Of a stretch of 24,660 nucleotides of DNA, positions 6,001-9,000 are shown piece after piece (positions within the stretch are counted from its first letter, which is position 1; each line of letters opens with the position of its first letter). The position numbers were made by a program. This DNA is from a virus (taxonomy: Duplodnaviria; Heunggongvirae; Uroviricota; Caudoviricetes). The DNA lies in the IMG/VR virus record IMGVR_UViG_2534681934_000023. One strand, 5' to 3'.

Positions 6001-9000
6001 ATGGATACGAAAAGATCCGCTGGCCGGATGCACCGGGGTGGGCGAGCCGGGAAACCTGGCTGGAGAGTGTCCCGGACAGTACCGAACCGTCACCCTCACC
6101 GGAACCGGTATCCACGCCTGTTAAAAAACAAAAACGGAAGAAAACAGTAACTGACGATGTTAACCCCTGGCTGACTTCCGGAGGATGGTTATGAACCAGA
6201 ATGATATCGAAGCCATGATTCAGCGTTATACGGAAGCTGAAATGGCGGTGCTGGACGGAAAATCCGTCACCTTTAATGGTCAGCAGATGACCATGGAAAA
6301 CTTATCTGAGATCCGGCAGGGACGGCAGGAGTGGGAGCGCCGCCTTGCGGCTCTGATTACACGACGACGGGGGCATCCCGGGTACCGGCTGGCGAGGTTC
6401 TGATGGCAATTCTTGATGATGTGATTGGCGTTTTTTCACCAGGATGGAAAGCGGCAAGGCTGCGTTCCCGTGCGGTGATCCTGGCTTATGAGGCCGTAAA
6501 AACGACGCGGACACACAAAGCCCGGCGGGAAAACCGAACTGCCGACCAGTTAAGCCAGTACGGGGCCGTGTCGTTACGTGAGCAGGCCCGTTACCTTGAT
6601 AACAACCACGATCTGGTTATTGGTGTATTTGACAAGCTGGAAGAACGGGTGGTGGGGAAAAACGGGATTATTGTCGAGCCACATCCGGTATTACGCAATG
6701 GGGCCATTGCCCGTGATCTGGCAGCGGAGATACGCACCCGATGGAGTGAATGGTCTGTCAGTCCGGAAGTCACCGGGCAGTTTACCCGTCCGATGCTGGA
6801 ACGTCTGATGCTGCGTACCTGGCTGCGCGATGGTGAGGTGTTTGCCCAGATGGTTTCCGGGCGCATAAACAGCCTGACGCCTTCTGCCGGTGTTCATTTC
6901 TGGCTGGAGGCGCTCGAGCCAGACTTTATTCCCATGACCAGTGATGAGAGCAACAGGCTGAATCAGGGCGTGTTTGTTGATGACTGGGGGCGTCCCGAAA
7001 AATATCTGGTGTATAAAAGCCGTCCCTTATCCGGACGGCAGATGGAAACCAAAGAAGTGGATGCAGAGCGAATGCTGCATCTTAAATTTGTTCGCCGTCT
7101 GCACCAGATGCGCGGGACGTCTTTGTTGTCCGGTGTGCTGATCCGCCTCAGTGCCCTGAAAGAGTATGAGGATTCTGAGCTGACTGCAGCAAGGATCGCC
7201 GCTGCTCTGGGGATGTACATCCGGAAAGGCGATGGGCAGAGCTATGAACCGGATGGTAATGGCAGCAAGGATAAGGAACGCGAGCTTACCATTCAGCCAG
7301 GCATTATTTACGACGATCTGAAACCCGGCGAAGAAATCGGAATGGTGAAGTCGGATCGCCCCAATCCTAACCTTGAAACTTTTCGTAATGGTCAGTTGCG
7401 TGCCGTGGCGGCGGGCAGTCGTCTGAATTTTTTCCAGTACAGCGCGCAACTATAACGGCACTTACAGCGCCCAGCGTCAGGAGCTGGTTGAATCCACTGA
7501 TGGCTACCTGATCCTGCAGGACTGGTTTATTGGTGCCGTCACCCGCCCGATGTATCGTGCCTGGCTGAAACAGGCTGTGGCATCCGGTGTTATCAGGCTA
7601 CCCCGCGATCTTGACCGTTCTTCACTGTATACCGCGGTGTATTCCGGACCGGTGATGCCGTGGATTGACCCTGTTAAGGAGGCTGAGGCCTGGAAAATTC
7701 AGATTCGTGGTGGAGCAGCGACAGAATCAGACTGGGTACGTGCAGGTGGTCGTAATCCGGATGATGTCAAACGTCGGCGCAAGGCCGAAATTGATGAAAA
7801 CCGCAAGCTGGATCTGGTATTTGATACCGATCCGGCCAGTGATAAAGGAGGCAGCAGTGCCGCAACGAAACGACAGGAGCCGCAGCACACCGACGACCAG
7901 TCCGAAGAATAATTCCTGGTTCAGGATGCAGGCTGGTCACCAGAGTGACGCGGATATTTATATTTATGACGAGATTGGTTTCTGGGGTGTTACAGCGAAG
8001 CAGTTTATCAGTGATCTGAATGCACTGGGCGATATCACCCACATTAATCTCAATATCAATTCACCGGGTGGCGATGTCTTTGAAGGCATCGCCATTTTTA
8101 ATGCACTGAAAACACATGGTGCGTCCATTACCGTTTATGTCGACGGTGTGGCGGCGTCAATGGCGTCGGTCATTGCGATGGTGGGAAAACCGGTCATTAT
8201 GCCGGAAAACTCCTTCATGATGATTCATAAACCATTTGGCTTTACGGGCGGTGATGCGGAGGACATGCGCACCTATGCCGACCTGCTCGATAAAGTTGAG
8301 GCGGTTCTGTTACCCGCTTATGCACAGAAAACCGGGAAAACCACCGATGAAATTGCTGCCATGCTGGCGGATGAGACCTGGATGTCCGGTGCCGAATGTC
8401 TGGCACATGGATTTGCTGATCAGGTGACGCCAGCCGTTAAGGCAATGGCATGTATTCAGTCAAAACGTACAGAGGAATTTAAAAAGATGCCGGAATCCAT
8501 TCGAAACATGATTACTCCGCCACGCAACAGTGCTCCACGCGTACAGGATGATGGACCTGCAGCCTCCCGGACGCCAGTGCAGGCAGCAGCACCTGTGGTG
8601 GATGAAAACAGTATCCGTGCGCAGGTACTGGCAGAGCAAAAAGCGCGTGTAAACGGTATTAATGATCTGTTTGCCATGTTTGGCGGGCGTTATCAGACGC
8701 TGCAGGCTCAGTGTCTTGCCGATCCTGAATGTTCGCTGGAGCAGGCCCGCGAAAAGCTGTTGAACGAGATGGGGCGCGAGTCCACGCCATCTAATAAAAA
8801 TACCCCGGCTCATATTTATGCCGGAAACGGTAATTTTGTGGGGGATGGGATCCGCCAGGCGCTGATGGCGCGTGCCGGATTTGAAAAAACCGAACGTGAT
8901 AATGTCTACAACGGGATGACCCTGCGTGAATATGCCCGTATGTCACTGACTGAACGGGGTATTGGGGTTTCCAGTTATAACCCGATGCAGATGGTCGGTG

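Follow-up and report, generated by a model that had tools for sequence, protein, structure and literature searches.

The portal gene of prophage Sp3 in Escherichia coli O157:H7 is almost certainly a genuine pseudogene carrying a real, inherited one-base frameshift

A lambda-family portal gene on the plus strand at positions 6403–7912 of the window (the whole stretch of viral DNA analyzed here, 24,660 nt, IMG/VR record IMGVR_UViG_2534681934_000023) is 1510 nt long and is read in frame 1 first and then in the +1 frame up to 7912. The initial annotation placed this change of frame between 7427 and 7455, around a run of six T residues (T6, 7428–7433), and offered two explanations, genuine decay and a sequencing error in the homopolymer. 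The locus raises the question of whether the portal gene is truly broken, by what mutation, and whether a full-length portal might be made in spite of it.

The window corresponds to prophage Sp3 of E. coli O157:H7 Sakai (a ‘lambda-like phage’ feature in that genome), with 99.98% identity over 1–10485 and 99.79% over 11799–24660. The stretch between 10485 and 11799 is an IS629/IS1203 copy that is missing at this place in Sakai. The location and cargo are those of Sp3, a cryptic prophage that lies between ybhC and ybhB/bioA and has the effector genes nleB2, nleC, and nleH1. Sp3 corresponds to CP-933K of EDL933.

Translation of frames 1 and 2 bore out the proposed position of the frame change. 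The frame 1 product terminates in ...GSRLNFFQYSAQL before its stop codon. After a TGA at 7424–7426, frame 2 stays open for 161 codons (IFSSTARNYNGTYSAQRQEL...DDQSEE, then the stop). Both frames are open only over 7427–7452, with T6 inside this interval, and the switch must fall there because of the frame 2 TGA and the frame 1 TAA at 7453–7455. Translation departs from the portal frame at codon 343 with the stop eight codons on, and the last eight codons of the N-terminal fragment (FQYSAQL and the stop) are out-of-frame read-through past the lesion. The shift required is +1 (a surplus of one base or a deficit of two), and a run of either T5 or T8 restores a single ORF. T5 and T7 had both been named initially as lengths that would do so; this is correct for T5, whereas T7 adds a second extra base and leaves the frame broken. 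With one T removed, the gene encodes a portal of 502 aa, 4/502 residues of which are unlike the mEp460 portal. At its 5’ end, the C-terminal part lacks both a start codon and a ribosome-binding site of its own.

Table 1. Coordinates of the split portal gene, its mutation site, and the neighboring head genes in the window. The start of the 7926..9884 gene is taken from the mEp460 annotation.
Feature	Position	Strand	Details and basis
Terminase large subunit, intact	4092..6194	+	ORF list and annotations of relatives
Small gene before portal, 72 codons	6185..6403	+	ORF list, sequence
Portal N-terminal fragment, frame 1	6403..7455	+	ATG 6403, 350 codons and TAA 7453–7455 (translation)
Mutation site	7426..7433	+	AATTTTTT here; AGTTTTT in every intact homolog
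Portal C-terminal part, frame 2	7427..7912	+	161 codons and TAA 7910–7912 (translation)
ClpP-like prohead protease/major capsid fusion, intact here	7926..9884	+	CLP_protease 125 bits and Phage_capsid_4 187 bits

The repaired protein matches the Pfam family PF05136 (Phage_portal_2, the lambda family) with 272.4 bits over profile positions 3–354, the cut-off being 32.9. On its own, the N-terminal fragment scores 249.2 bits and matches only positions 3–324 of 354, so the break falls inside the conserved domain, at profile position 324. The C-terminal part aligns to residues ~370–549 of the portal chains 8vhx_D and 8k38_A, in agreement with the initial suggestion that the downstream frame continues to a portal-like C-terminus. 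The neighboring genes have the order of the family, namely terminase large subunit, small W-like gene, portal, and protease/capsid gene, as judged from the ORF map, the annotations of strain 319, mEp460, and Sakai, and the Pfam matches of the neighbors. The TGA stop codon of the small gene shares one base with the portal ATG; this gene is labelled ‘head-tail adaptor’ or ‘putative head-to-tail joining protein W’ in some phage records, and a Pfam search of its product gave no match. The single uninterrupted ORF of PF05136 portals (~500 codons covering wing, stem, clip, and crown) is not present here. Because the ORF closes at 7455, 350 codons in, with the rest in frame 2, the locus is a pseudogene of a lambda-family portal and no functional member of the family.

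All intact relatives (mEp460, IMG/VR loci, E. coli genomes, and the O55:H7 strain CB9615) read CTGAGTTTTTCC where the window reads CTGAATTTTTTCC. Pairwise alignment with mEp460 gives one substitution and one inserted base at the site, equivalent to G → AT, by which AG followed by five T residues (AG+T5) becomes AA followed by six (AA+T6). In codons, CTG AGT TTT TCC has changed to CTG AAT TTT TTC C. Alignment with related portal genes, which had been suggested from the start, identified T5 in its AG+T5 context as the form that restores the frame. The original description in terms of T-run length was right about the net extra base, but a plain change in the run does not account for the site, at which the relatives show a substitution together with an insertion. 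Across the whole 1.5-kb gene, the adjacent positions 7427 and 7428 are the only O157-specific differences from the CB9615 ortholog. The one-step intermediates AA+T5 and A+T6 each gave 0 exact matches in 5,426 complete E. coli genomes. One complex mutation producing both changes at once is favored because these are adjacent and are the sole O157-specific changes in the gene; it is probably the most economical account, two successive hits being another possible route. A separate difference lies 24 nt upstream of the frameshift site, at 7403, where CB9615 has G and the window and all other relatives have C. The portal genes of CB9615 and Sakai thus differ at three positions, all within 26 nt. The change at 7403 is particular to CB9615 and seems unconnected with the lesion.

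The distribution of the two alleles was assessed with exact-match searches and with a tally of related loci. Among complete E. coli genomes, 286 contained an exact 70-mer across the site (AA+T6) and 711 matched the AG+T5 form exactly; exact-match counts of this kind depend on identity bands from short BLAST queries and would miss alleles with extra flanking SNPs. Sakai and EDL933 both carry AA+T6. Among the matches listed, the 10 exact matches to the 70-mer were O157:H7 by name or had no serotype named, with EDL933 included and no other serotypes. In a tally of at least 120 IMG/VR loci together with strain 319 and mEp460, 115/122 were AG+T5 and 7/122 were AA+T6; a pattern scan found AA+T6 in 6 of the 120 IMG/VR loci among the matches listed. 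Across the gene, every locus with the frameshift allele shared at least 99.8% identity with the window, as compared to 97.8–99.2% for in-frame loci, again among the matches listed. Sixteen phage records, mEp460, cdtI, Ayreon, and Tritos among them, carry the gene at 98–99% DNA identity as a single ORF of 1509 nt, with matches to both halves of the window gene. Together with the Pfam match, this shows that the split gene is no chance pattern. Sakai, EDL933, and the 286 complete genomes have the lesion and O55:H7 CB9615 does not, which makes it usable as a clean lineage marker.

In favor of a sequencing or assembly error, with an intact portal in the true genome, homopolymers often give rise to artefactual single-base indels, and the site is a homopolymer. 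However, the identical allele is present in 286 independently assembled complete genomes, in Sakai and EDL933, and in 6 IMG/VR contigs, the adjacent G → A substitution is not a product of homopolymer miscalling, and T6 is short for systematic miscalling. An artefact could not reappear in the same form in hundreds of separate assemblies; the error option is therefore rejected, its probability being close to nil, and of the two explanations first offered it is real decay that stands. The homopolymer at the break would also be in keeping with a phase-variable contingency switch, in which reversible changes in T-run length toggle portal expression. The one-step revertant AA+T5 and the A+T6 form, however, each occur in 0/5,426 complete genomes as compared to 286 with AA+T6, every frameshift-clade locus inspected has exactly T6, and the run is short for a contingency tract; such a switch can be given practically no credence. 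A portal functioning in two pieces, with N- and C-terminal polypeptides made separately and then assembled, would fit the PGAP annotation, under which most O157 genomes have two ‘phage portal protein’ CDSs, neither marked as pseudo. Yet the starts for a second piece, ATG 7550 and GTG 7577, have no recognizable ribosome-binding site and omit 40–50 conserved residues, a split portal occurs in none of the relatives (phage records and at least 120 IMG/VR loci), the break cuts between stem helix and wing, and the curated Sakai annotation is that of a pseudogene. No promoter-like site was found for the C-terminal piece, and a terminator-like match at 7407–7433 is a weak consensus match that the intact allele would satisfy too. 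The chance that the two pieces form a working portal is vanishingly small.

A full-length, functional portal might instead be produced by a programmed +1 ribosomal frameshift or by RNA-polymerase slippage at U6/T6. On the sequence AAU UUU UUC C, tRNA-Phe could shift its pairing into the +1 frame (UUU to UUU), loss of one U from the transcript restores the frame, and some background slippage is plausible. However, the shifted arrangement is not conserved: 115/122 loci (at least 120 of them from IMG/VR), the 711 E. coli genomes, and the O55:H7 ortholog are in frame, and the shifted form is confined, among the matches listed, to one clade of at least 99.8% identity. The A site holds no slow or stop codon; the triplets that come next in the zero frame, UUC and CAG, specify amino acids in the usual way and are neither stops nor of the rare AGG/AGA type. 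The sequence upstream of T6 has no SD-like stimulator, the downstream RNA fold was no better than that of shuffled sequence (z = +0.89), and an Rfam search at the site returned no element, only a sub-threshold snoRNA chance match. Efficient transcriptional slippage is known from runs of ~9 or more, and T6 is shorter. Strain 2017C-4109 has a second disruption upstream in the gene, and Sp3 DNA is unpackaged (PMC2669165, Table 2). CP-933K portal peptides were also looked for in a published proteome (PMC3210124), which makes no mention of the portal. Recoding to a functional portal is extremely improbable. It is also very unlikely, if slightly less so, that low-level +1 slippage at U6, whether ribosomal or transcriptional, gives a little full-length portal in O157:H7 cells that express Sp3 late genes and that this portal or the 350-residue fragment joins or hampers head assembly of a co-resident lambdoid prophage; if true, the slippage product or fragment would feed the prophage–prophage interactions described for O157.

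The portal of Sp3 is thus almost certainly a genuine pseudogene, made so by a real one-base frameshift that is inherited in the O157:H7 lineage, and an instance of ordinary prophage decay. Because the CB9615 ortholog has an intact AG+T5 portal, the lesion is placed on the O157:H7 branch after the separation from CB9615. In the sequence of events proposed, G → AT would have hit an intact portal on that branch, the AA+T6 allele would then have been passed on clonally with no reversion in any sampled genome, and the downstream 161 codons would have been left as an untranslated remnant.

The structure of lambda gpB was used to assess the consequence for the protein. Residue 305 of the repaired portal aligns by phmmer to gpB residue 332, and the alignment is gap-free to the break, which places residue 342 at about gpB residue ~369. 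In gpB the wing comprises residues 24–249 and 368–452, the stem 250–279 and 343–367, the clip 280–342, and the crown 453–511 (PMC10721106). From this correspondence and these domain limits, the truncated product stops where the second stem helix gives way to the second wing segment. As predicted from sequence, the 350-residue product would keep the first wing segment, the stem, and the clip and would be without the second wing segment and the crown. Such a product should be unable to form a working portal.

The locus is annotated in different ways. In the Sakai RefSeq record, ECs_0827 (window 7550–7912) is a pseudogene, ‘phage portal protein’, which adjoins the N-terminal fragment ECs_0826. 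In most O157 genomes, PGAP gives two ordinary ‘phage portal protein’ CDSs at window 6331–7455 (WP_072187152.1 or WP_010904538.1) and 7577–7912 (WP_127446149.1); the first begins at GTG 6331, inside the upstream gene, as compared to ATG 6403 here. The two PGAP CDSs are best taken as a single pseudogene. In Asadulghani et al. (2009; PMC2669165), Table 1 gives the Sp3 portal as ‘D’ (defective) and Table 2 gives Sp3 as without circularization, replication, or packaging; its repressor and replication functions are also reported there as absent. That the Sp3 portal is broken is already known from the reference annotation and the literature. The additions made here are the exact lesion (G → AT), its absence from the O55:H7 ortholog, and its uniform presence in 286 complete genomes.

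Changes that postdate the frameshift are few. Downstream of the break, the sole difference from mEp460 is one synonymous change; the inactivation is too recent for decay of the C-terminal sequence to give independent proof of relaxed selection. Two other members of the frameshift clade have one synonymous change apiece. Over 1–10485 the window differs from Sakai Sp3 only at 6482 and 7027, both nonsynonymous transversions to T (Q27L and V209L), which are common to ten complete genomes including strain 319, 644-PT8, and 180-PT54, the other relatives having A and G. Both differences land in the N-terminal portal fragment, which may reflect chance (roughly 1–2%) or relaxed constraint. Strain 2017C-4109 (NZ_CP030767.1) has an additional 10-bp deletion at about window 6622–6631 and is marked ‘frameshifted’ by PGAP; this deletion is continuing decay of the portal remnant. 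Taken together, the post-frameshift changes look unconstrained, in numbers too small for a formal selection test. Other Sp3 lesions across O157 strains include an integrase pseudogene (Sakai) and a truncated bet.

The initial annotation considered decay of the portal to be consistent with a defective tail module, and the window does contain an IS629 copy, a 4.8-kb tail deletion, and a frameshift in J. At 10483–11800, 4,815 bp are missing relative to strain 319 and Sakai Sp3, comprising the 3’ part of a small head-tail gene, the tail genes Z, U, V, G, and T, and part of the tape-measure gene (~2.2 kb). On its right side, the deletion comes to within 3–6 nt of the left inverted repeat of the IS629/IS1203 copy (TGAACCGCCCCGG...) in the tape-measure gene. 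This copy is associated with a 3-bp target duplication, ATA, and the deletion junction with GCG microhomology. A 91-nt probe across the junction had no match in 5,426 complete E. coli genomes, and the deletion is therefore private to the source strain or an assembly artefact. Compared with strain 319, the host-specificity gene J has one extra nucleotide near 15773, which splits it into ORFs at 15013–15807 and 15758–18427. This insertion lies within a patch of 22 clustered substitutions at 15111–15859, and the patch resembles a tract acquired by recombination from a paralogous lambdoid J gene.

With a broken portal, Sp3/CP-933K should be unable to build heads alone, which agrees with its published failure to be excised, replicated, or packaged. 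For this reason nleB2, nleC, and nleH1, all effector genes, count as fixed chromosomal cargo. The importance of the lesion beyond such bookkeeping is small.

Lambda gpB (PDB 8k38) also belongs to PF05136, and the C-terminal third of the repaired protein aligns to gpB 332–474, but the two sequences are only distantly related (phmmer E = 2.6e-4). Lambda has the head genes C, Nu3, D, and E; the head module of the window differs from this arrangement in its fused protease-capsid gene. The closest functional counterpart described here is mEp460, whose portal (AFM76041.1; CDS 2830–4338) has 99.0% DNA identity to the window gene. Together with its relatives cdtI, Ayreon, and Tritos, mEp460 shares the gene order of the window (terminase small, terminase large, W-like, portal, and protease-capsid fusion). 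Unlike the window, these are viable phages with an intact 1509-nt ORF and AGTTTTT at the site.

Sakai Sp3 (ECs_0826 and ECs_0827) is the same locus with the same AA+T6 allele, and only 2 bases differ over window 1–10485. The sublineage of the window has in addition Q27L and V209L, the IS629 copy, the 4.8-kb tail deletion, and the J frameshift, none of which is present in Sakai. The prophage of O55:H7 CB9615 (NC_013941.1, beside ybhC) occupies the same integration site and is 99.9% identical over window 1–10485, but its portal is intact (1509 nt, WP_000985949.1, AG+T5) whereas that of the window is broken. It retains (NC_013941.1 965000–1014000, 15790–49001) the cI/cro/cII/O/P/ren/ninB region that is lost from O157 Sp3. 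CB9615 has lesions of its own: its protease-capsid fusion gene is interrupted by an internal stop, and bet is frameshifted along with other genes. Decay of this prophage has followed independent courses in the O157:H7 and O55:H7 sister lineages.
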